Assembly: GCA_037443265.1 (NCBI GenBank)
Contig: JBBIOR010000023.1
Location: forward strand, 9,254-20,784
DNA: 11,531 nt
DNA from: Candidatus Fraserbacteria bacterium
GTDB taxonomy: Bacteria > Bipolaricaulota > Bipolaricaulia > RBG-16-55-9
Reading direction: 5' to 3'
The notes under the pieces are model-generated. The model had not been told where the DNA came from. It made no database searches and was given only the letters and a program-made list of their open reading frames with translations. This document shows positions 1 through 11,053 of this stretch, in pieces. The position numbers and the translations under genes were made by a program. Position 1 is the stretch's first letter. Every line of letters begins with the position of its first letter.

Positions 1-173
1 TTGCGAGCTGACCGGAGCGCCGCCCGGAGGATCTTCGGCTGCTGAGCAAATCCGCCCCATTGGTTCAAGGGACCGGCCAGCACGGCCGCTCCCACCGCGG
101 CTCAGAGCCCCTTGAGGAAGCGACGTCGACTGATCCGATGGTGTTGCAACTCCACAGAACGCGTTTGAGACAT
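1..173 (-). pseudogene. 5' end of a Tat-exported protein gene with an in-frame TGA at codon 24 (pseudogene, sequence error or recoding); runs off the window edge
   Basis: Manual translation from ATG 173-171: MSQTRSVELQHHRISRRRFLKGL*AAVGAAVLAGPLNQWGGFAQQPKILRAALRSAR. It has a canonical twin-arginine motif (SRRRFLK), an Ala/Gly/Val h-region that continues past the TGA (104-102), and a possible GFA/QQ cleavage site. Strong SD GAAGGAGG lies 7 nt upstream. Not in the ORF track. Confidence 0.75.
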
Positions 174-246
174 CACTAAACCTCCTTCATCGGAATGAGA
201 GTGTTTTAGTCCCGAAGGGACGAGCTTCCAGAAGGTCTAGCGATGT
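170..246 (-). promoter_or_regulatory. mRNA stem sequestering the SD and start codon of the Tat gene (translational attenuator)
   Basis: ACAUCGCUAGACCUUCU (246-230) pairs with AGGAGGUUUAGUGAUGU (186-170) over 17 contiguous pairs, 14 Watson-Crick and 3 G:U. An internal GUCCC-UUC-GGGAC hairpin lies in the intervening loop. Confidence 0.8.
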
Positions 247-458
247 ATGGGAGGATGCTCTACCGTGGGAGGAAAGCCCTCACACAGGGCGGGTTTGTGG
301 ATAGGGGTCAAGATCCAGACTGGCAGAGCGAGGGCGAACAGAAGGGGCTCGACTGTGACCACGCAGGTGAAGGCTTCGTGACAGGAGTTCTCCAAAGGAC
401 TCAGAGTCACAGATAGCAAGACCAAACCTGCCAAAAGCATGATCTGCGCTTTCGCCAT
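237..458 (-). CDS. 73-aa putative leader/arrest peptide (CutF/CruR/DUF2946-like architecture)
   Basis: Hydrophobic signal-like N-terminus, C26-H27-x4-C32, and a Pro-rich C-terminus GFPPTVEHPPIHR. It lies between a strong promoter and the SD-sequestering stem. Its own SD is weak. Confidence 0.7.
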   Translation of the reverse strand: MAKAQIMLLAGLVLLSVTLSPLENSCHEAFTCVVTVEPLLFALALPVWILTPIHKPALCEGFPPTVEHPPIHR

Positions 459-520
459 AGCTCGATCAGTCTCTAGGAGTCAGTGACGCCCGACTCTGCC
501 ATGTGCTGTCCTGCTGTGGC

Positions 521-549
521 ATTCTACTTTGAACTGCTGCGCATGTCAA
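521..549 (-). promoter_or_regulatory. sigma70-type promoter for the leader peptide and Tat gene
   Basis: TTGACA (549-544), 17-bp spacer, TAGAAT (526-521), in the intergenic gap just after the VIT1 stop. Confidence 0.8.
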
Positions 550-561
550 GAAGCGCGTTGC

Positions 562-1659
562 TCACAGATGCCCGGTGATCAGTGCACCGATGAGATAGCC
601 GACGACCGCTACGCCAAGCCCCACAAGGAGCATATCGAGTCCGCTTCGGAAGGCCCCGCGTCCGGTGAAGAGACTGCGGGCTGCGCCCACGGCAAAGTGT
701 GAGAGCATGCTGATCGAAAACGACGTCCAGATGTAGAGGGGGCCCTCTCCGAAGAAGAAGGGCAAGACAGGGATCAGCGCGCCCAAGGCCGTAGCGGTTC
801 CCGTCAAAAGCCCCTCGCGCACCGGCTTTCCCAACTCCCCAGCGATGCCCAGCTCCTCGCGGGCCTTCTCTAGAAGCGCGATCTCGGGATCGGCCATCAC
901 TTGAGCTGCGGCCTGCCGGGCCGCCTCAGCCGGCATCCCCTTGGCTTCATAGAGCAGAGCGAGTTCTTCGGCTTCGATCTCCGGCATCAAGCGCAATTCT
1001 TCGCGCTCCAGCGCCATCTCGTGCTCGTAGACTGCGCGTTCGCTCTTGGCCGCAAGATACCCGCTTGAACCCATCGAGAGCGCATCGGCTACCAAGCCCG
1101 CAAGACCCGAGAGGAGCACAAACGCATGGGGAGCTTCTGCCCCCAACACGCCCATGACCAACCCGAAGTTGGCCGTAAGCCCATCGTTGAAGCCGTAGAC
1201 GACGTTGCGCAAAAAGCCGCCTGATTCGATCCGATGCCAGGGCTCGCCGCGGCGACCGGCAAGCTCAATGAGCAGCTCCGCGTGGCGGGCCTCATCGCGG
1301 GCCACTTGTTGCGAGAGCTCTGCGGCTTTGCTTGAGCTTGGCACTTGACTCTCGCGCAGATAGTCTTTCACTTCGCGGGCCTCTTCTGCAATGCGAAGGG
1401 AAAGCACAATTGAAGCCGCACCACGGCGGACCATCCAGGCCAGAAGCCTGGTCCGCCAACCCGGTCGGAATTCTTTCAGCCGGATGCCCTGCTCAAAAAG
1501 CAGCTTCCGGAAGGCCTCTTGATGCTGAGTCTCGACATCGGCCAGGCGCAGATAGAGCTTCCGGCGGCGCTCGTCACGTTCCAACTCGGCCAGCACTCGA
1601 TAGAGAAAGGCCGATTCGCCCTCGTCCTGCCAGTGCGCGCGCAGGCGCCCCTCGCCCAT
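562..1659 (-). CDS. VIT1/CCC1-family Fe/Mn transporter with N-terminal rubrerythrin/ferritin-like domain
   Basis: VIT1 motifs VYGFNDGLTANFGLVMGV, GLVADALSMGSSGYL and LIPVLPF. The N-terminal four-helix domain has two ExxH motifs (ETQH, EARH). SD GGAG upstream. Confidence 0.92.
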   Translation of the reverse strand: MGEGRLRAHWQDEGESAFLYRVLAELERDERRRKLYLRLADVETQHQEAFRKLLFEQGIRLKEFRPGWRTRLLAWMVRRGAASIVLSLRIAEEAREVKDYLRESQVPSSSKAAELSQQVARDEARHAELLIELAGRRGEPWHRIESGGFLRNVVYGFNDGLTANFGLVMGVLGAEAPHAFVLLSGLAGLVADALSMGSSGYLAAKSERAVYEHEMALEREELRLMPEIEAEELALLYEAKGMPAEAARQAAAQVMADPEIALLEKAREELGIAGELGKPVREGLLTGTATALGALIPVLPFFFGEGPLYIWTSFSISMLSHFAVGAARSLFTGRGAFRSGLDMLLVGLGVAVVGYLIGALITGHL

Positions 1660-2143: not shown

Positions 2144-3049
2144 TCAGGGAGGACATACCGGCTCGGGCACCTTCACTGAGAGCCTGTCATTGAACTGTCT
2201 AGGATCGAACTCGGGAAGATTCGCTGGATCAAAGATGCTATCGGGCAGCTCGCCGATGTCCTCACGCGCCGTGATGGTCACCGTCGTCGAGCTGCCCTCT
2301 AAGAGATCCTTGACGACAATCGTGTTCGCCTCCAAACGATCCCTGAACGTCACAAGATCGTCCACGGTGAAGATGTCTTGCAGCTTGCCGACGGTGTTCG
2401 TGTTCTCCGATTTGAGCACGAGAAACTCCTGCTGATCCACCCAGACCTTGCGCTCGGGGAAGGGGTCATCGGGATTGTTCTTGGGGTTGGCGGTGAGCTT
2501 GAGCACGTAGGCCGGACGATCTTGCTTTTCGCCGTTGACGGTGAGTCCGTGGATTGCCTCCTCGCCTAAGAGCTCGGCGTCGAAGTCAAAGCGCAGCTGG
2601 CTGCGTCCGATCTGATCGAATTGAATATTCGAGCCCGCAAAGCTCCCCTGGCGCTCTCCGGTTGCGATCAGCTGCTTGACTTGCCCCAGTGCCGGAAGAA
2701 ATAAAAAGAGATCTGACTTCTGGCCGGGGATCTTCTTATCGATGCTAAGAAAGATCGTGCCGCAGGTCTCCGCGGGAGGGGCCAGAAAGTAGATGAGCAC
2801 GCGATTGGGTACCTGGGGGTCAGCGGAGTTCTTGCTGAAGAAGACGAAGTTTTTGTCTTGGCTGGTCCCGGTTCTATCGACAATGGTGAACGTCAAGAAG
2901 GCGATCTGGCTTCCCAGACCGCCCAGACCCCCTCGGGCATCGACTCTTGCGAGGATCTCCTGTCCGGTCAAGGGCTGTGCTTGTAGAGAGATCAACAGGC
3001 CCATCAGCATAAGAGCGGCCGTGAAGGTAATTCGCGCTACTCGCATCAT
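2144..3049 (-). CDS. LolA-like 'outer membrane lipoprotein-sorting protein' (copy 2), exported
   Basis: Signal peptide (..SLQA/QP), then GQEILARVD, LIYFLAP, LFLFLPALGQVKQL, GSFAGSNI, KVWVD and LPDSIFDP, which are typical of MMPL-associated LolA-like proteins. SD AAGGAGGT. Confidence 0.85.
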   Translation of the reverse strand: MMRVARITFTAALMLMGLLISLQAQPLTGQEILARVDARGGLGGLGSQIAFLTFTIVDRTGTSQDKNFVFFSKNSADPQVPNRVLIYFLAPPAETCGTIFLSIDKKIPGQKSDLFLFLPALGQVKQLIATGERQGSFAGSNIQFDQIGRSQLRFDFDAELLGEEAIHGLTVNGEKQDRPAYVLKLTANPKNNPDDPFPERKVWVDQQEFLVLKSENTNTVGKLQDIFTVDDLVTFRDRLEANTIVVKDLLEGSSTTVTITAREDIGELPDSIFDPANLPEFDPRQFNDRLSVKVPEPVCPP

Positions 3050-3055
3050 TGAGTA

Positions 3056-5368
3056 TCAGACCTCCTTGGTAGCTAGTGCTCTTTGAACGGCCCCTCGCCT
3101 GCTGAGAAAACGCGGCTTTAGGGTCAAGAGCAAGGCTGGAATGAGCGTGTAGCACCCTAAGAACGACCAGATCATCGTCAAGTTGATGAGCAGGCCGAAG
3201 TTGCGCAGGCCCTGGAAATCCGAGAGATAGAAGACGGCGAAGCCGGCCGTGAGCGTAATGGCATTAAAGAGAATCCCGCGGCCCATGGTGCGCATGGCGA
3301 TCTCATGGGCTTCTGACAAGCTATGTCCACGTTCTATCTCCGTCTTCCAGCGGACCATGAAGTTTATAGTATAGTCGATCCCCACGCCCACCGCGATGCT
3401 GCCGATCATAAGCGAGGCGAGATCCAGCGGCAGGCCGAGATAGCTCATCGTGCCTAAGTTCATCACGATGGTGAGGATCATGGGGGAGACGGCCACGATA
3501 GCCGCCACCAGGGAACGGAGCAGCAGAGCCACGATGAGGAAAGCCGCGATCAAGGCGAGCAAGAGCGTACGTCCGGTGTCGGGCAGCGTCCGGGTGGCCA
3601 GCGAGGCCCAAGCCTGTTCGGGACCTACGAGCTTCGCCCGAGCCTGAAAGTGCTCTTGTAGATAGCTCTCTACCCGCTGCGTCAGTGTTGCAATTTGCGC
3701 GCTGCTTAGGAGCTTCGTGCGGGCCACCACCTCCCCACGTGAGAAGTCCAGGGTGGCCATATGGCCCAGATTGCCGCCGCTGAACGTAAAGAGCGTAAGG
3801 AGCTGCGCCGCCAGTTTCGAGTCGGCGGGGATGACGTAATAGCTGGGATCATCGGCGTGAAATTTCTGGTTCATCTCACGGACGAGATTCGCCAGCGAGG
3901 TGACGTTGCCCCCATACTCTGGCTGTTCTTTCAGATATTCCTGCAGGGCCACGATCTTTCTTAGCACGGCCGGATCTTGGAGGCCACCCGGCCTTCCGGT
4001 GTCAATGAGGATGGAGAGCTGCATGCTGCCCCCGAGATGGCGCTCGAGGGCGTTGCTGGCGATCATGGCCGGATGGTCTTTGCCCAAGAACTCTGAGGGG
4101 GTCGTCTCCACCCGCAAGTGGGGGATGGCGACGGCGAAGGCGATCAAGATGGCTCCCGCTACGCCCAGCACCCAGCCGCGTCGCCGGTCGATGAGGCGGC
4201 CGAAGCGAACGAGGGCATTCGGCAGCCAGCCGTGCTCATAGTCATACTGCTTCTTTGAGATGGGCAGAAGCGCTAAGATGGCCGGAAGCAGCGTAAAGTT
4301 AATCACCAGCGTGTAGAAGACCCCGACGGCGATGAAGAGCCCAAATGTTCTTTGCGGCCAAAGAGTTGCGGCGAGCAGCGATAGAAATCCTGCGATCTCC
4401 GCCAGGGCGTCCATGGCCAGCGGCTTGCCCATGTCCTGCATGGTATTGATGATGATCTCTCGTTTTGAGAGTCGGCCGTGGTGCATGGCCTCTTCATAAT
4501 AGCGATTGACAGTGTAGATGGCATACGCCTTGCTGATCATGATGAGCATCACGGGCAGGAAGAACGAGAAGGGCGTCATGGGCGAGCGCACGAGGGCCAT
4601 CGTCCCCACGGTCCAGAGGGTGCCCAAAATCATGAGCAAGAAGGGCAAAGCCACCCCGCGCCCCGTGCCAAAGGCCATGAAGACGAGAAGCTCCATCACG
4701 AGAATGACAAGAGGCGTGAGCAGCTTCAGATCCTCCTGCATGCTGCGGGCAATCGACGTGCGCAGCTGGGGCACGCCGCCCACGTAGATCACTAGCCCCG
4801 ACTCCTCGTAAGACTCAGCGATCTCTGTGACCCCTTCGACGAGGGCTGCGGTGTCGTCGAGGTAGGGATTGAGTTTGAGTATGATGCCGGCAGCCTTTTC
4901 GCTCTCGGCAAAGATATAGCCGCGAAGATTACGATCTCCCATCACTTTGCGGCGGTAGAGTTCCAGCTCCTCGGGCGCCCGGGGCAAGATCTCGGCCGCC
5001 GGCTCGATGACGAGCGTCTTTTGGGTAGCGGAGATGACGGTGGCCGTGGTAGGCCCGATCACATCATCCACGCCCCGAAGAGTTTTGAACTTCTCTTCCA
5101 TCTGGCGGATCTTGGCGATCGTGGGGATCTTAAAGACCGTGTCGGGCGCCTCGATCAGCACCATGAAGAACTCTTGAGAGCCAAAGATCTTCTCTGCCTG
5201 CTGCATCCGCTGGACAGCCTCATCTCTTTCAGGCAAGAATTTCTTGAAATCCGTCTCGAAGCGGATCTGAGGGATGAAAGCGAGGAAGAAGAGCGTCACG
5301 ATGAGGATGGCAGCCAGCGTAAGATGAGGGTGGTCGACGACTGTGCCAGTCCAACGCCTTAGGAGCAT
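3056..5368 (-). CDS. MMPL-family RND transporter (copy 2), about 770 aa
   Basis: Two repeats of TM + extracytoplasmic domain + 5 TM, with GVGIDYTINF in the second repeat. Start moved to ATG 5368 (MLLRRW) to avoid overlap with the upstream gene. SD is weak, so the start is uncertain. Confidence 0.9.
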   Translation of the reverse strand: MLLRRWTGTVVDHPHLTLAAILIVTLFFLAFIPQIRFETDFKKFLPERDEAVQRMQQAEKIFGSQEFFMVLIEAPDTVFKIPTIAKIRQMEEKFKTLRGVDDVIGPTTATVISATQKTLVIEPAAEILPRAPEELELYRRKVMGDRNLRGYIFAESEKAAGIILKLNPYLDDTAALVEGVTEIAESYEESGLVIYVGGVPQLRTSIARSMQEDLKLLTPLVILVMELLVFMAFGTGRGVALPFLLMILGTLWTVGTMALVRSPMTPFSFFLPVMLIMISKAYAIYTVNRYYEEAMHHGRLSKREIIINTMQDMGKPLAMDALAEIAGFLSLLAATLWPQRTFGLFIAVGVFYTLVINFTLLPAILALLPISKKQYDYEHGWLPNALVRFGRLIDRRRGWVLGVAGAILIAFAVAIPHLRVETTPSEFLGKDHPAMIASNALERHLGGSMQLSILIDTGRPGGLQDPAVLRKIVALQEYLKEQPEYGGNVTSLANLVREMNQKFHADDPSYYVIPADSKLAAQLLTLFTFSGGNLGHMATLDFSRGEVVARTKLLSSAQIATLTQRVESYLQEHFQARAKLVGPEQAWASLATRTLPDTGRTLLLALIAAFLIVALLLRSLVAAIVAVSPMILTIVMNLGTMSYLGLPLDLASLMIGSIAVGVGIDYTINFMVRWKTEIERGHSLSEAHEIAMRTMGRGILFNAITLTAGFAVFYLSDFQGLRNFGLLINLTMIWSFLGCYTLIPALLLTLKPRFLSRRGAVQRALATKEV

Positions 5369-5388
5369 GTCTACACTGCTGGGATGAG

Positions 5389-5880
5389 CTACTTCAACCA
5401 GCCGTTCCGTGCGAAGATGGCGGCAAACCAAGCGGGGATGAGATCCTCCATGACGCCCACGGCTTGCAGCTGGCCTTGGGAGCCCTGCTCAATGAGGGCT
5501 TGGATCGCCTGGATGCCTGCCAGAATCTCCCAGCGGGTCTGATGAGTAATGGGGCGCGTCGCAATCCACAGTTGCCGCAAAGAGCCGTCTTCAAGCCCGC
5601 GGGGGACGATGAGGATCATCTCGTATTGCTCCCCGGTCGAATTGGAGCCTAATGGGTCATCAAAGCTCGATTGGACGTTAGCCCACTTCGCCTCCAACTG
5701 GAACAGACCCGTGTTTTTGAGGGCCTGGGCTAGGATCTGGACCAAGATGGAGGCTTGGAGTGTCTGGGTCTCATCCACCAGGAGCAGATCGACCTTCTCC
5801 ATCTCGGCTTGAGATCCAGCAACTCCCCCTCCGCTTAAGAGCAGAAGGCCTATGAGAAGGATAGCCAGCGTCTGTCTCAT
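5389..5880 (-). CDS. exported hypothetical protein, about 163 aa
   Basis: ATG 5880 behind AAAGGGGTG. Signal peptide MRQTLAILLIGLLLLSGGGVAG. Tightly packed in the operon. No family recognised. Confidence 0.75.
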   Translation of the reverse strand: MRQTLAILLIGLLLLSGGGVAGSQAEMEKVDLLLVDETQTLQASILVQILAQALKNTGLFQLEAKWANVQSSFDDPLGSNSTGEQYEMILIVPRGLEDGSLRQLWIATRPITHQTRWEILAGIQAIQALIEQGSQGQLQAVGVMEDLIPAWFAAIFARNGWLK

Positions 5881-5904
5881 GCGGTGCACCCCTTTCCGTG
5901 ATCG

Positions 5905-6258
5905 TCATCTCCTTACGCGCGGCGGTCGAGCCATCTTGATGACCCGCTCGCCCGCCAGAAGCTGCTCCAGCGTCACTTCCCGCATCAGCCGACAGGCTTC
6001 AATCACTTTGGGGTTGGCGATTCTGTAAAACACCCGCAGCCCCTCTTTCCGAGTGACAACGATGTTGTAATGGCGCAACAAGGCCAGATGTTGCGAGACG
6101 TTGGCCTTGGGAATATTCATGGCCTGCGTCAGCTCATCCACAGACTTCTCACCCTGGCTTAAGAGATCGATGATCTCTAGGCGCTTAGGGTTGGCCATGA
6201 GGCTGCAGACCTGAGCGTGCAGCTTATAGGCTTCTCTTCTGAGTTCTCCTCTGTCCAT
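5905..6258 (-). CDS. ArsR/SmtB-family transcriptional regulator
   Basis: ANPKRLEIIDLL, SVDEL, NVSQHLALLR and VVTRKEGLRVFY form the winged-helix signature. Confidence 0.93.
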   Translation of the reverse strand: MDRGELRREAYKLHAQVCSLMANPKRLEIIDLLSQGEKSVDELTQAMNIPKANVSQHLALLRHYNIVVTRKEGLRVFYRIANPKVIEACRLMREVTLEQLLAGERVIKMARPPRVRR

Positions 6259-6274
6259 CCCGCATACTCATGCT

Positions 6275-7129
6275 CTACTTCCCCAGATTATTGGGATCAA
6301 AGACGCTCTCAGGGATGCCCGTGTTGTACTCAACATTGCTGAAGGTGTATGTACTTGTAGTCTGAGTCTGGACGTTCTCGGCGGTGGCGCTTATGGCCGT
6401 CCAGACGACTGCGCTGCCCCCAGCCGATCTCGTGACTGTTCGCTGCTCTTGCTGGTTTACCCGCAGCACCCGCAGCAGGTTCCCTTGCTTGTCGTAGAGC
6501 TCTTCTTTGAGAATCATTAGGCTTGCTTGATCGATCCAGGCCACCCGGCGACTGAATTCCGCAGTGGTGGGTTCGTTGGGGATGCTTTCTATCACCCAAG
6601 TGGCGCGGCCCTCTAAGGTTTCAGTCCGGAGCAGGGCATGAGAGTCGGCACCGGCCGGCCGACGGGTGGCATCCTGATAGTTGAAGACGCTTCCGAAGAG
6701 CGACTGGCGCTGGTTCTCGGGTTCGACCTTCTTCACCAACTTCACGGCCGGAAGATACAACCAGAAGTCATCGGGCTTGGGGTACTCGTTCTCCCAGGCA
6801 AGAAAAGCCAAATCTTTCGAGTCCTCCGGAGCCTGAACGACCACCAGCACCTTGTAATTCATCTTCTCTCGGTCGTAGAGCCGGGTCAGCATCTTAAGCG
6901 TCAGCGTCTTAGTCTGGCCCTCGCGGCTCGTCTCTAGAGTCACTTGGGCCTTGAAATCATCGCCCTGATAGCGGTCCTCGACTCGCTTCATGATCTCCTC
7001 GGCCGAAGGCCCTTGTGCCCAAGTAGTGTGCACTGACGCCATGCCATAAGCCAAAAGCCCCATGGCCACTGCACACACGATTTCGAACCTCGCGAGCAAC
7101 AGCGCAGCTATAAGCCTGAGCTTCTTCAT
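6275..7129 (-). CDS. LolA-like 'outer membrane lipoprotein-sorting protein' (copy 1), 284 aa, exported
   Basis: True start ATG 7129 (MKKLRL) with SD AAGGAGGAG and an ATGA overlap with the MMPL-1 stop. Motifs SAEEIMKRV, DDFWLYLPAVKLVKKV, SLFGSVFNYQD, YDKQGNLLR and YNTGIPESVF. Confidence 0.88.
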   Translation of the reverse strand: MKKLRLIAALLLARFEIVCAVAMGLLAYGMASVHTTWAQGPSAEEIMKRVEDRYQGDDFKAQVTLETSREGQTKTLTLKMLTRLYDREKMNYKVLVVVQAPEDSKDLAFLAWENEYPKPDDFWLYLPAVKLVKKVEPENQRQSLFGSVFNYQDATRRPAGADSHALLRTETLEGRATWVIESIPNEPTTAEFSRRVAWIDQASLMILKEELYDKQGNLLRVLRVNQQEQRTVTRSAGGSAVVWTAISATAENVQTQTTSTYTFSNVEYNTGIPESVFDPNNLGK

Positions 7130-9531
7130 CGTCTCTCCTCCTTGATGGCTGATAGACTCACCGGCAAACGTGCGGGCTGCTGTGGTAATAACCAGCCCCG
7201 CAGCATGGAGATCAAAGCCGGCAGATAGATCAAGGTAGCGAGCGCGCTCAGCAGCATGATCGCCATGATGAACAGCCCGACGGTGATGTAGGGTGTAAGA
7301 CTCGCAAAGATCATGACCGAAAAACCCGCGGCGAATAAGATCGCATTGCGCAAGATGCCCTTGCCAGGACGCGCCACGGTCCAGATCAGCGCTGGCTCTA
7401 GATCGGGTTCCCCCTGATAGCGCTGCTGGAATCGCTTCACGAAGTGAATCGCGAAATCGACGGCCATCCCCAAAGAGAGCGTAGAGAGAACTGAGATGGG
7501 CATGTCGAAGTCTTTTCTTATAAAGCCAATGAACCCATAGATCAGGGCAATGGCAAAGAGCAAGGGGATGAAGCTCACCACAGCCCAGCGCCATGAGCGG
7601 AAGTTTATGGTCAATATAATGAACACAAAGATCAGAGCCAGAATGAAGCCCTCCAGCATGCCGTAGAGCACCTCATCGTTCCAGACGAGATTGAAATAGG
7701 CTACCCCTGCAGGCTGGAAGGTCACGCCGGGAAGTGGGTGGGTTTCTACGTACTGCTGTACGCGCTCGATCACGCTCCTCATGGCCCCCGCGTCCCACGT
7801 CTTGAGCTGCACCCAGATGTTTGCCTTCTGATAGGAGTAGTCGACGACGTTGTCCAGCGTGCTTGGCTTGGCTGACATGCTGAAGAGCAGCAGATACTGA
7901 GCCACCGTGGGCTGATCCTCGGGAACGCGATAATACGCCGGATCGTCTCGGTGCATGACGCGGTTGATCCACTGCACGTAATCTACGAGCGAGATCGTCT
8001 TACCCACCGCGGGTAATTCTTCGAGATCCCGCTGGAGGTCATTGAGATACTGTAGCGCTTCAGGGCTCTTCATGAAGTCGGGCTGCGCGGCCGAGGCCAC
8101 AATGTAGGCCAAGGCCGTCCCGCCCAGCTGCTCATTTAAGATGGCATCAGCCTGGCGGATGTCGCTGCCACGCTTAAACCAGCTCACCATGTTGTTGTTC
8201 ACGTTGATCTGGCTCATCCCCACGATAGAAGCGATCAGAAGCAGAAGGCTCACCCCGATAACCGTTTTGCTTTGGGCAAGGCTTTTCTCTCCCAGAAGGC
8301 GCAAAAGATGCACGACGCGATTGGTTTGCATATCTTCGTGTGCGGATACTCTGAGCAACTGCCCCTCAGGCGTGAGCATCATCACGGCGGGGATGAAACT
8401 GAAGCTCATCAGGCGCAGGACCAGGGTGCCGAAGGCCACAAAGAGCCCGAAGACCATCACCGGCTCGATCGCGCCTTTGACGGGGATGAGATGAGAAGCC
8501 TTCAGCGCGATAAACCCCACCAGCGAGAGCGTGGCAAAGCCTATGGCCGTGGCCAGCGCCGTGGAGCGCACCGGCGCCCCCACCACTCGCATCGTCTCCA
8601 GAAGGGCGGCCTTCTTGTGTCCACCCGCCTCGCGAAAGCGGAAGTAAAATTCATTGAAGATGTGTACGCTATCGGTGGCAATCGCGATCAGGAAGACTGG
8701 GATCATCGAGCTCATGATGTGCACCGGCAACCCTAAGCCGATCAGAAGCCCCATGCTCCAGATGATGCTGATCAGGGCCACCGCCATCACGGAGATGGCC
8801 CACGCGAGAGCGCGGAACATCGCGTAGAGCGTGAGCATCATGATGAGGCCCGCTAAAGGGGAGAAGAGGGCCATCTGCCAAAACATCTGGGCACCGAAGG
8901 TGTCGCGAGCGATCGGGTCCCCCGCCAGATAATATTTCTCGGGCCCGCTCTCTTTCGAGAGAAGCGCTCTGATCTGATCGGCGATCTCTTTGCCATTGGA
9001 CCCAGACTCCAGAGGAATGTAGAGGGCCGTCGTCTTCGCGTCCTTCGAGATTAGCCTTTCGAGAAAGAGTGGGTTCTCATAGAGCGTCTTTCTGAGGGCC
9101 TCTAGCTCCTGAGGGGTTTGGGGGATCTGGCTCATGAGGGGCTTGACCGTGAGGAGATCCCCTTCGGCCGTGACGTTGTCCACTGTAGTGAAGCTGGTCA
9201 CGTCTCGGGCCACGACCCCTTTGAGCTTGGAGATTTCAGTGGTAAGGCGGGCGATGCGCGCCAGGGTCTGCGGGTTGAAGATCCCCTGATCGTTGAAAAT
9301 GCCCAAGACGATCGTGTCCTTGTGGAGGGCGAACCATTGATCGACTTGGTCGTTATAGACCCGTACCTTAGAAGTAGCCGGAAGCATGTTCTTGGGGTCT
9401 GTGTCAATCTTAATCTTGGGCAGCTGTAGCAGGAAGACGGCGGTGATGACCAGAGCAATGAGGATGGTGGCTTTGGGGTAGCGGATAGAGAGCTCCGTTA
9501 AGCTGGACCAGCGGATCGTCCTGGAGCGCAT
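7126..9531 (-). CDS. MMPL-family RND transporter (copy 1), 801 aa
   Basis: Duplicated RND architecture with IAIATDSVHIF and GMAVDFAIHF TM4/TM10 motifs. First gene after the 9593-9621 promoter. Confidence 0.92.
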   Translation of the reverse strand: MRSRTIRWSSLTELSIRYPKATILIALVITAVFLLQLPKIKIDTDPKNMLPATSKVRVYNDQVDQWFALHKDTIVLGIFNDQGIFNPQTLARIARLTTEISKLKGVVARDVTSFTTVDNVTAEGDLLTVKPLMSQIPQTPQELEALRKTLYENPLFLERLISKDAKTTALYIPLESGSNGKEIADQIRALLSKESGPEKYYLAGDPIARDTFGAQMFWQMALFSPLAGLIMMLTLYAMFRALAWAISVMAVALISIIWSMGLLIGLGLPVHIMSSMIPVFLIAIATDSVHIFNEFYFRFREAGGHKKAALLETMRVVGAPVRSTALATAIGFATLSLVGFIALKASHLIPVKGAIEPVMVFGLFVAFGTLVLRLMSFSFIPAVMMLTPEGQLLRVSAHEDMQTNRVVHLLRLLGEKSLAQSKTVIGVSLLLLIASIVGMSQINVNNNMVSWFKRGSDIRQADAILNEQLGGTALAYIVASAAQPDFMKSPEALQYLNDLQRDLEELPAVGKTISLVDYVQWINRVMHRDDPAYYRVPEDQPTVAQYLLLFSMSAKPSTLDNVVDYSYQKANIWVQLKTWDAGAMRSVIERVQQYVETHPLPGVTFQPAGVAYFNLVWNDEVLYGMLEGFILALIFVFIILTINFRSWRWAVVSFIPLLFAIALIYGFIGFIRKDFDMPISVLSTLSLGMAVDFAIHFVKRFQQRYQGEPDLEPALIWTVARPGKGILRNAILFAAGFSVMIFASLTPYITVGLFIMAIMLLSALATLIYLPALISMLRGWLLPQQPARLPVSLSAIKEERR

Positions 9532-9574
9532 AGTACGATGAGCTCACACCTTGAGCGGTCCATTGAATTAAAAA

Positions 9575-9590
9575 TTTCGAGAATTCGAAA
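9575..9590. promoter_or_regulatory. palindromic operator TTTCGA-N4-TCGAAA, candidate ArsR binding site
   Basis: Perfect 6-4-6 inverted repeat in an AT-rich patch. It begins 3 bp downstream of the -10 box and so covers the expected transcription start. Confidence 0.65.
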
Positions 9591-9592
9591 CT

Positions 9593-9621
9593 AATATAGC
9601 ATAGACGGTCATCCTTGTCAA
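9593..9621 (-). promoter_or_regulatory. sigma70-type promoter of the MMPL/LolA/ArsR operon
   Basis: TTGACA (9621-9616, containing the upstream gene's TGA stop), 17-bp spacer with the extended TG, and TATATT (9598-9593). Confidence 0.8.
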
Positions 9622-11003
9622 GCCCCGCCCTCTTTGGTCCACTTGAAGATCCTAGAGGCGAGACCGATCCCCTTGAGCTCTAGCTCGATATACTCGGTGC
9701 TCTCGTCAAAGAGCGGTTTCCCATCCAGTTCGTTGGGCAGCTTCAACACGCCCGCGCGATGATGTGAGGACTCCGGGCCCGGCTCCCAGTTGAAGCCCTT
9801 CTCCACGACTCCGACGCTGGTGCGCAAGACGGCCAGCTTCGTGAGATCATACTGCATCAAGTCGACAGAGTGCGTGTCCAGCGTGATCTTGAAGCGGAGC
9901 TGATCTTTGCTCTCTTCTGGTTTCATCAGCGGGTTCATGAAGATGACCATCACGTCGATGCTAGCCCCCTTGCTCGTGCGGGTTAGATCCGCTTCCGTAA
10001 GATTCGCAGATGGAGGGGACATGCTTATCGCATGGCGATGGGCAGGGGGAGCTTCGATCAGCACGATTTGATGAATCTCTGAATTGACCTTGAGTTTTTT
10101 CACCACGCGCTTGGTGGCCGTATTCAGGATGAGAACGCTCTGATCCGCGATGCTACCCACATAGAGATATCTCCCATCGGCCGAGGCTGTGAGATGCTCC
10201 GGGCTCGTGCCCAGTTCCACTACGCTGCTGACTTGGTTCTTCTCGATGTCGATCACAGAGAGCGTGGTCGCTCCCCGATTGCCCACGTACACGTATTTCC
10301 CAGCAGCGGCCACCCCATGTGGCCCTGGGCCCACCGCTACCGTCGTGAGGACGCGCTCATTGCTCGTGTCGATGACGCTTACGCTGTTGTCGTCTTTGTT
10401 GGTGGCGTAGAGGAATCGGCCATCGGGCGTCACGGCCGCGTGGTCTGGGCTCTTTCCGACTTCCACCGTTGCCACGACTTTCAGCTGGGCCGTATCCACT
10501 ACCGAGACACTGTTGGAACCCATGTTGGTCACGTAGAGCTTGCTCTCATCTGGAGTCAAGACTGTGTAGCTGGGTGTCTTGCCGACAGGGATCTGGGCGA
10601 TCACAGTGTTCAGGCTGGGATCAATCACCGCAACGGAGTTGGTTTCGCCAACAGTCACGAAGACGTGCTTGCCGTGGGGACAGACGGTGACATGATGTGC
10701 TCTGCCTCCCACGTCAATCTTTGCGATCGTTTTGTTCGCTTGAAGATCGATCACGGAGACTTCGTTGCTGCCGTAGCTGGCGGCATAGGCGATCTTCCTA
10801 TCCGCCAGTACGCCCACCCCGTGCACGGCTGGCCCAGCCGCTGCGGCGGTCAGCTTCCCTGAACTGACATTCACGACGGCGATCTGATTGGCCGCGCCTT
10901 GAGCGATCATTAATTCAGCCTGCGGAAGAGGGCCGGGGGCCAACAGCAAGTAAACCCCCAGCAACAATGCCACAGCTATAGCAACTATCCACTTGATATC
11001 CAT
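9618..11003 (-). CDS. exported/membrane-anchored YVTN (YncE-like) beta-propeller with a C-terminal His-motif domain, 461 aa
   Basis: Start ATG 11003 behind AGGGAGG. N-terminal hydrophobic helix, then about 7 repeats such as LYVTNMGSNSVSVVD and LYATNKDDNSVSVID. The C-terminal domain has LDTHSVDL and SSHHRAG. Confidence 0.88.
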   Translation of the reverse strand: MDIKWIVAIAVALLLGVYLLLAPGPLPQAELMIAQGAANQIAVVNVSSGKLTAAAAGPAVHGVGVLADRKIAYAASYGSNEVSVIDLQANKTIAKIDVGGRAHHVTVCPHGKHVFVTVGETNSVAVIDPSLNTVIAQIPVGKTPSYTVLTPDESKLYVTNMGSNSVSVVDTAQLKVVATVEVGKSPDHAAVTPDGRFLYATNKDDNSVSVIDTSNERVLTTVAVGPGPHGVAAAGKYVYVGNRGATTLSVIDIEKNQVSSVVELGTSPEHLTASADGRYLYVGSIADQSVLILNTATKRVVKKLKVNSEIHQIVLIEAPPAHRHAISMSPPSANLTEADLTRTSKGASIDVMVIFMNPLMKPEESKDQLRFKITLDTHSVDLMQYDLTKLAVLRTSVGVVEKGFNWEPGPESSHHRAGVLKLPNELDGKPLFDESTEYIELELKGIGLASRIFKWTKEGGA

Positions 11004-11053
11004 CGAATATCGTCCTCCCTTTCTTTGCTCTGGATGACGGCAATCTCCCAAAT

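Follow-up and report, generated by a model that had tools for sequence, protein, structure and literature searches.

Introduction

The closest described systems to the leader peptide considered here are CutF of Rhodobacter capsulatus and CruR of Bordetella pertussis. CutF, encoded in cutFOG, comprises 118 aa with a Sec signal, a CxxxC motif, and 45 residues leading to a C-terminal GPPPRL, and a stem-loop that shields the Shine-Dalgarno (SD) sequence belonging to a twin-arginine translocation (Tat)-exported oxidase is melted by CutF, with copper prolonging the arrest and thereby turning the gene ON (PMC9973294; bioRxiv 10.1101/2025.02.05.636593). The model of this system invokes disulfide formation (10.1101/2025.02.05.636593). 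CruR (Bp2923), the prototype of DUF2946 (PF11162), comprises about 145 aa with a CXXC motif, a spacing of 45 residues conserved within 1-2, and RAPP three residues from its end; the intergenic region following it is 162 nt long, and copper releases the arrest, upon which Rho terminates transcription and the uptake operon is turned OFF, independently of the signal peptide (PMC9426467). When CruR arrests, the P and A sites are occupied by its two Pro codons (PMC12992588). Both proteins share an export signal, a Cys motif, a spacing of 45 residues that is conserved, and PP located 2-3 residues before the C-terminus (PMC9973294; PMC9426467). Furthermore, a rule-based collection of CutF-like proteins, whose lists were seeded by jackhmmer from CutF, holds 5,334 proteins in 29 clusters (list D), including clusters with mixed Cys/His sites and Ni/Co-linked neighbors (HupE/UreJ); Chloroflexota and Spirochaetota are called scarce and Bipolaricaulota are not named in the sections consulted (Ozturk et al., 2023; PMC9973294). 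This report is focused on a 73-aa leader open reading frame (ORF) and the RNA stem behind it in an 11,531-nucleotide stretch of DNA from Candidatus Fraserbacteria bacterium (phylum Bipolaricaulota; assembly GCA_037443265.1, contig JBBIOR010000023.1, positions 9,254 to 20,784), referred to as the window (G000:C23:9254-20784, G000 being the genome that carries it), for which a metal-sensing arrest-peptide switch had been proposed from the letters alone (the sequence-only reading). On balance, the leader is probably a CutF/CruR-type nascent-chain sensor heading a promoter-leader-binding protein-permease operon.

Architecture and Conservation of the Leader Peptide

All parts listed in the sequence-only reading, i.e., a promoter, a 73-aa ORF, a Cys/His motif, HPP, a 17-bp stem, and a Tat-signal gene, are present in the sequence (Table 1). 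The ORF carries C26, H27, C32, H68, P69, and P70 as proposed, the tail I-H-R follows P70, and the distances are 44 residues from the first Cys to the second Pro and 37 residues from the last Cys to the first Pro; no obvious SD sequence was found ahead of this ORF by reading of the sequence. The claim of a near-consensus promoter is likewise borne out, the site being the single one in window 1-700 compared with a mean of 0.1 sites in shuffled sequence.

Table 1. Features of the leader locus and their positions in the window.
Feature	Position	Strand	Basis or remark
Promoter-like site, TTGACA (549-544), 17 nt, TAGAAT (526-521)	521..549	-	Sigma-70-like, 11/12 matches
Leader ORF, 73 codons + TAG	237..458	-	ATG start; kept in 6 lineages
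Codons 1-22, hydrophobic segment following a basic residue (either signal peptide or N-in signal anchor)	393..458	-	Hydropathy
C-H-E-A-F-T-C (C-H-x4-C motif), codons 26-32	363..383	-	C, H, C invariant in 6/6 lineages; codons differ
35-codon linker, length fixed, sequence variable	258..362	-	Length 35 in 6/6
H68-P69-P70 (CAT CCT CCC), proposed arrest site; PP codons at 254-249	249..257	-	[H/R]PP in 6/6
Stem 5' arm; holds leader stop TAG (239-237) and anti-SD CCTTC	230..246	-	Sequence reading, fold, shuffles
Small inner hairpin GUCCC-UUC-GGGAC in stem loop	209..221	-	Minimum free energy and centroid folds
Stem 3' arm; SD GGAGG (185-181) and ATG (173-171) of downstream gene	170..186	-	P(unpaired) 0.00 for SD and AUG in free RNA
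5' end of Tat-signal SBP_bac_5 gene, RRRFLK at 128-111	1..173	-	TGA at 104-102; window ends at scaffold gap

Relatives of the leader were compared at two levels: counts over four loci refer to G000 and to three related genomes with leader-locus DNA (G008, G004, and G002), and counts over six lineages add two leaders known as database proteins (P0002 and P0004), the lineages being groups below 90% identity and the comparison being anchored on the Cys motif. In a protein search of 61 related genomes, weak matches were obtained in two genomes of another genus, the loci of which hold 72-73-codon TTG-start ORFs with the same features. A profile search of 184 genomes of the phylum returned four strong matches, in G000, G008, G004, and G002 (E 7.7e-36 to 1.3e-12), together with nine weak matches (E 0.002-0.08), two of which were inspected as candidate family members and rejected, the leader architecture being absent in both. 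From large protein databases come P0002, which shares 78% identity with the window leader, P0004, and close variants of the G002 type, two of which are called by independent gene callers as a 70-aa TTG form. The family amounts to 2 clusters among 5.8 billion protein clusters (word-index search, in which two proteins were found) and 3 among 1.84 billion representatives (profile search); searches of genome contigs returned 2 loci, namely the G008 and G004 contigs, and those of metagenome contigs 1 locus, on the same contig as locus L018. All lineages with a named organism are from Candidatus Bipolaricaulota. Judged by this comparison, the leader ORF is a real, conserved, and very rare gene.

The leaders are 70-73 aa long (P0002 is called as 84 aa) and start with TTG in three of the four loci with DNA. 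All six lineages follow one plan: a hydrophobic N-terminus, C-H-x4-C, exactly 35 residues, [H/R]PP, 3-5 further residues, and the stop codon. The tail motif is EHPP in four lineages, DHPP in one, and ERPP in one (P0004), which gives the general form [E/D]-[H/R]-P-P with H in five and R in one. The Kyte-Doolittle (KD) 15-residue maximum was measured for five leaders, and in four of them a strongly hydrophobic N-terminal 15-mer (KD 2.45-2.63) stands behind K or R at position 2-3; the window leader has K3 and a maximum of 2.45 at residues 6-20, the N-terminal maximum is 2.59-2.63 in three relatives, and in P0002 the maximum lies instead in its second hydrophobic stretch. A cleavable signal and an anchor are not distinguished by hydropathy alone.

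The sequence between the two motifs is nearly free to vary. The linkers of the window clade or of G008 share only 3-8/35 residues with those of the other lineages, and the closest of the other types share 11-17/35; the linker of the G004 leader is nearer to those of G002 and P0004 (14-17/35) than to that of G008, a member of the same genus (6/35). By contrast with the flanking permease and binding-protein genes, which share 80-89% DNA identity between loci, the leader shares 53-68% and the intergenic region 44-50%, which suggests very fast evolution or exchange of a leader cassette. The HPP codons read CAT CCT CCC, CAT CCT CCT, CAC CCA CCC, and CAC CCC CCG across the loci, and this synonymous variation indicates that selection preserves the peptide, as opposed to a CCUCC string resembling an anti-SD. 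Only two short motifs, an N-terminus of the export type, and the exact spacer are held while the rest of the sequence varies freely, a pattern that suits a nascent-chain ruler and not a folded protein.

Operon Setting and Target Gene

An 11/12 promoter-like site lies upstream of the leader in all four loci, and the next gene after the leader encodes in each case the same Tat-signal NikA/Opp-type binding protein (decayed in G000), with intergenic lengths of 63, 107, 100, and 142 nt; scans of the four loci listed no sense-strand promoter-like or terminator-like sites between the two genes. The Tat-signal gene proposed downstream of the leader is recovered, its ORF in the window reading MSQTRSVELQHHRISRRRFLKGL, a stop codon, and then AAVGAAV..., and it contains RRRFLK, which is Tat-like. 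Intact orthologues begin RRQFLKRVGAAAGA, with Gly at the position of the window's TGA. In an order-wide search of 35 genomes, no more than three contained an orthologue of the binding protein (88-100% identity), and all three also carry the leader; G000 holds remnants only, which fall under the threshold of that search. An OppC-type permease gene, itself preceded by an ORF of permease size, comes after the binding-protein gene in G008. The upstream neighbor varies: the window has a VIT1 gene there, G008 and G004 have permeases of a different transporter, and G002 has a DUF3105 gene; these differences between loci imply that the conserved unit is the promoter, the leader, and the binding protein.

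The intact binding protein of G008 belongs to SBP_bac_5 (PF00496, 290.7 bits), and the solved structures closest to it are those of an unnamed protein of family 5, AppA, 4oet (named as a putative peptide ABC-transport system periplasmic peptide-binding protein), and NikA. The target is a binding protein of the NikA/Opp family and not a copper oxidase like the CutO cited in the sequence-only reading. TatC and EF-P are present in the genome. Besides these genes, the VIT1-domain protein (365 aa, window 562-1659, minus strand, 192.8 bits) has a weak rubrerythrin-like N-terminus and is of the membrane-bound ferritin/iron-exporter type; its gene is located directly upstream of the leader promoter only in G000. 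The leader operon is adjoined in G000, G008, and G002 by DUF3105 genes and by genes for DUF420, a TlpA/AhpC-like thioredoxin, and a membrane protein of the DsbD type (G000:C23:6103-8085; G008:C100, L034 12617-14737), and AhpC_TSA neighbors have been reported for CruR-type operons (PMC9426467).

The strict co-occurrence of the leader with the binding-protein gene, together with its signal-like N-terminus and Cys/His motif, would also be explained by a small exported or membrane-anchored protein acting in trans, i.e., a metal chaperone or an accessory subunit of the ATP-binding cassette (ABC) importer, with a structural role for the PP tail. The second hydrophobic stretch of the window leader (KD 2.25, residues 39-53) agrees with such a protein but is not kept in G002 and G004 (KD 1.05-1.51), no family or structure match was found, and linker identities of 3-8/35 beside binding proteins that are 88-96% identical are out of keeping with the evolution of folded partners. 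This alternative is unlikely.

RNA Structure at the Leader End

The proposed 17-bp stem was confirmed, 246-230 pairing without interruption with 186-170 through 14 Watson-Crick and 3 G-U pairs and burying both the SD sequence and the AUG of the downstream gene. The helix is the core of the minimum free energy and centroid folds of window 270-150 (-41.4 kcal/mol, z -3.09, none of 200 shuffles as stable), and when the 441-nt region was dinucleotide-shuffled 300 times, no stem exceeded 15, so that none reached 17. The duplex between the leader end and the ribosome-binding site (RBS) has an energy of -28.4 kcal/mol in the window compared with -15.3 +/- 2.8 kcal/mol in shuffled sequence (0/500 as good). 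In G002, an interrupted 9+5+6-bp duplex pairs the region of the leader stop codon with the RBS region, and 2 of 500 shuffles were as good.

Observations Against a Working Switch

Several observations weigh against the reading of the locus as an arrest-controlled switch, and they concern the RNA, the state of the target gene in G000, and the identity of the leader and its target. Regarding the RNA, the leader-end/RBS duplexes of G008 and G004 are unexceptional (331/500 and 123/500 shuffles as good), the corresponding regions fold no better than shuffles (z +0.28 and -0.87), and the intergenic regions of the four loci are unalignable. As far as these comparisons of sequence and predicted fold reach, the 17-bp stem is specific to the source genome and is not conserved among relatives. 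Moreover, when only the upstream sequence is shuffled, SD occlusion in the three relatives is not above the shuffled level (61, 65, and 105 of 150), and even in the window the excess is modest, in particular for the SD sequence (11/150; 3/150 for the AUG).

The sequence-only reading had further held that a ribosome paused at HPP covers the 5' arm and frees the SD sequence. When a ribosome is modelled with Pro69 and Pro70 in its P and A sites, respectively, as described for CruR (PMC12992588), this PP-stalled ribosome covers to about position 239, so that the first part of the claim holds in part, 8 bp on the AUG side being opened, but the anti-SD (235-231) is left uncovered and the SD sequence stays mostly paired; the modelled P(unpaired) is 0.39-0.71 for the AUG and only 0.05-0.22 for the SD sequence. 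A terminating ribosome would cover the whole 5' arm. Plain translational coupling, in which the leader would be an unregulated upstream ORF, a ribosome reaching its stop codon would open the stem, and Cys/His and PP would have no part in sensing, draws on exactly this difference between a whole and a half-covered arm, on the position of the leader TAG inside the 5' arm, and on the stop codon that lies within the duplex in G002 as well. It leaves unexplained why C-H-x4-C, [H/R]PP, and the 35-residue spacing are invariant across a hypervariable linker and why the N-terminus is of the export type, and we regard it as distinctly unlikely.

Regarding the target in G000, an in-frame TGA at codon 24 of the downstream ORF was overlooked in the sequence-only reading, as were the artificial gap at the window edge and the decay of the downstream SBP_bac_5 gene. 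The window edge is a 100-N scaffold gap with the same 55 bases on both sides, which marks the gap as artificial, an unmerged contig overlap. Past the gap, only pieces of the SBP_bac_5 gene and of two Dpp/Nik-type permease genes are left (the remnant comprises window 1-173 and G000:C23:8100-9430). Compared with a 567-aa intact orthologue, the surviving pieces correspond to residues 8-49 (with the TGA), 121-158, 166-195, 259-311, and 375-431 at 52-83% identity. In all, these five pieces retain about 220 of the 567 residues of the binding protein, and the deletions take up about 60% of the gene. No intact orthologue was found elsewhere in G000, where, apart from one 52-residue fragment with 53% identity, the remaining binding proteins reach about 30% identity at most. 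Logan contigs of run X1 match both sides with 0 differences (pieces 7900-9153 and 9279-9809); X1 is possibly the source sample and is therefore not independent data, but the agreement of a separate assembly of reads places the TGA and the deletions in the reads and not among scaffolding errors. Decoding of TGA as a sense codon was considered and ruled out, the neighboring VIT1 gene ending in TGA and the long ORFs of the window being open under table 11. The target operon in G000 is a pseudogene remnant, and because of this decay the switch there is probably a recent relic that has outlived its target. Separately, one Logan contig of X1 (depth 8.1) joins 9307 to 9780 (window about 54-527), skipping 472 bases with the leader; its shorter side has only 29 letters, and the contig may reflect strain variation in the leader region or be an artefact.

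Regarding identity, only six lineages of the leader family are known, and scans of the leaders against Pfam and NCBIfam at E<=10 gave only single chance-level matches (KASH 0.043; SCO7613_CTERM 0.013). None of five leaders matched DUF2946 (PF11162; gathering score 23.7 bits) at E<=10, a six-frame PF11162 search of G000 at E<=10 gave 0 matches, and among the 184 phylum genomes 0 matches exceeded the cut-off, with none at E<=0.01 in the four leader-bearing genomes. The arrest motifs demonstrated to be robust are RAPP, RGPP, and PPP, and HPP and RPP lie outside that set. The binding protein itself provides no tie to a metal, as every NCBIfam match falls far short of its cut-off and neither the TIGR02294 nor the Opp5A_nikA threshold is reached: the best NCBIfam match of the intact G008 protein is Opp4A at 174.4 bits against a cut-off of 650, and its score of 168.7 bits against nickel_nikA (TIGR02294) lies below the NikA cut-off of 393.

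Proposed Mechanism

Taken together, the peptide half of the proposed switch is well supported by comparison, the RNA half is lineage-specific, and the target in G000 is dead. From the anatomy, the conservation, the operon position, the linkage to the binding-protein gene, and the SD/AUG-sequestering stem observed in the window, we infer arrest, a ligand, and a direction of control as follows. The hydrophobic N-terminus would take the nascent chain to the Sec translocon, and with the ribosome at [H/R]-Pro-Pro the C-H-x4-C motif would be located 37-44 residues behind the peptidyl-transferase center, at the tunnel exit or in the translocon. Metal binding or oxidation of the motif to a disulfide would alter the pulling force or the conformation and thereby the length of the Pro-Pro arrest. 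The arrested ribosome would stand on the start of the downstream RNA structure, its dwell time setting initiation at the binding-protein gene; in G000, the controlled structure would be the 17-bp stem with the leader stop codon, SD sequence, and AUG. Having part of an importer as the target favors the CruR logic, in which arrest without ligand would mean ON and release of the arrest by the ligand OFF. The likeliest ligands would be Ni/Co or Cu, and the readout would be translational, as in CutF, in the window and in G002, with no readout assigned for G008 and G004.

An arrest leader of this kind could also monitor thiol redox state or Sec/Tat export capacity in place of a metal, in the manner of SecM, MifM, and VemP or through CutF-style disulfide-dependent pulling. 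Two Cys residues just after a signal sequence would suit such a monitor, as would the genes for a TlpA-like thioredoxin and a DsbD-type protein that lie close to the locus in both G000 and G008, and a disulfide is invoked in the model of CutF (10.1101/2025.02.05.636593). The target, however, is a solute-binding protein and not an export or redox component, the invariant His beside the first Cys better suits metal ligation, and the thioredoxin and DsbD neighbors need not be co-transcribed with the leader; we consider redox or export monitoring very unlikely. A chance ORF with a chance hairpin in a long 5' untranslated region is effectively refuted, in spite of the few lineages and the lack of an obvious SD sequence before the window ORF, by a 70-73-codon frame kept at 53-68% DNA identity with conserved motifs and synonymous changes, by the calling of the 70-aa form by independent gene callers, and by a stem longer than in 300/300 shuffles. 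A precursor of a ribosomally synthesized and post-translationally modified peptide or of a metallophore was also considered and dropped, no modifying enzymes being present near the locus in G000 or G008.

A more specific form of the nascent-chain sensor reading is possible but doubtful, namely that the leaders represent an independently evolved arrest-peptide class confined to Bipolaricaulota, defined by the signal, C-H-x4-C, a 35-residue ruler, and [H/R]-Pro-Pro, which would sense extracytoplasmic Ni/Co or Cu at the translocon and gate a Tat-exported NikA/Opp-type binding protein. If this were true, an ABC importer would for the first time be seen under the control of a nascent-chain sensor, and the family would offer a natural experiment in which the geometry of a sensor is set by the length of tunnel plus translocon.

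Other Genes in the Window

In the remainder of the window, genes for an MMPL/RND-type transporter and a LolA-like protein form a pair that occurs twice in tandem, at 2144-5431 and 6275-9531 on the minus strand; the transporters have 791 and 801 aa and the LolA-like proteins 301 aa and about 260 aa. An ArsR-family regulator (5905-6258) and an unannotated 166-aa signal-bearing ORF (5389-5889) are located between the transporter pairs. A 477-aa protein encoded at 9618-11051 on the minus strand has a YNCE-like/cytochrome-D1-like beta-propeller and a C-terminal part of approximately 140 residues that is unmatched.

Comparison With Known Arrest-Peptide Systems

The likeness to CutF and CruR claimed in the sequence-only reading holds for the parts, their order, and a fixed spacer, whereas the motifs and the target differ and the leaders lack a match to the hidden Markov model of DUF2946. 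As in CutF, the leader is the small first gene of its operon, with an N-terminus resembling a Sec-type signal and a C-proximal proline motif 2-3 residues before the stop; the 44 residues from the first Cys to the second Pro in the window leader resemble the approximately 45 residues from the Cys motif to the prolines in CutF, and in the window the downstream gene carries a Tat signal and has its SD sequence shielded by a stem-loop starting at the leader end. Unlike CutF, the leader has C-H-x4-C in place of CxxxC, E-H-P-P in place of G-P-P-P-R-L, and 73 aa in place of 118 aa; its target is an ABC-importer binding protein and not a detoxifying multicopper oxidase, with a control direction that is likely opposite; its host phylum is Bipolaricaulota; and its stem is not conserved among relatives.

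CruR shares with the leaders an upstream ORF that heads an uptake operon, Cys and PP motifs at a fixed distance throughout the family, and a long intergenic region, which is 100-142 nt in three of the four leader loci compared with 162 nt in CruR. C-H-x4-C, a 35-residue spacer, and an [H/R]PP tail stand against CXXC, 45, and RAPP, and in contrast to the Rho-dependent CruR there is no evident C-over-G bias of the kind seen in Rho utilization (rut) sites, the intergenic C/G fractions being 0.25/0.24, 0.31/0.32, 0.36/0.27, and 0.30/0.34. Compared with the 45 +/- 1-2 residues of CruR relatives, the spacing is likewise invariant in six of six lineages but places the motifs 35 residues apart, with the prolines 43-44 residues past the first Cys. 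Neither the CXXC/CxxxC nor the RAPP/PPP near the stop that characterize DUF2946 occurs in the leaders, and the likeness is limited to PP and where it stands. In a protein atlas, the Pfam-bearing clusters that come closest are a DUF2946-named/DUF6769 cluster (0.87) and CzcI (0.85), which both lie below the 0.9 level and are leads only. The RAPP-like peptides ApdA, ApdP, and ApcA and those with the SecM-type core are alike in their small secretory or membrane type, in a basic residue with C-proximal Pro-Pro, and in their position upstream of a regulated gene (PMC12992588); in the leaders, the R-[A/G]-P-[P/G] core is absent, and the basic H/R stands directly before PP and is itself preceded by E or D.

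Measured by the filters used for CutF-like proteins (PMC9973294), the leader is shorter than 150 aa, has PP within its last 15 residues, and is followed by a same-strand gene within 1,000 nt, its N-terminal signal being judged by hydropathy only. ABC or solute-binding neighbors are not mentioned in the main texts of PMC9973294 (0 occurrences) and PMC12992588, the supplementary neighbor lists lying outside this check. Two supplementary texts of PMC9973294 contain 0 occurrences of SBP_bac_5, PF00496, Bipolaricaulota, Acetothermia, and HPP, and the protein list of File S1, which lay outside the check, may bear on novelty.

The proposal of a distinct and possibly undescribed class is reasonable at the sequence level because the leaders lack a DUF2946 match, but the regulatory principle has already been published, so the leaders would not constitute a new class of mechanism. 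Leaders of this kind are badly under-annotated, with TTG starts and few database members. As comparative evidence for a molecular ruler, a spacer that stays at 35 residues while its sequence is under almost no constraint is unusually clean, and it could guide work on the location of the sensing motif at the moment of arrest. In the principle of CutF and CruR, a peptide under export signals the metal status while still nascent, through the lengthening or release of its arrest at prolines. If functional, the leader would extend this principle to a deep-branching uncultured phylum, to a new class of target in the form of an ABC-importer binding protein, and to a new pair of motifs.

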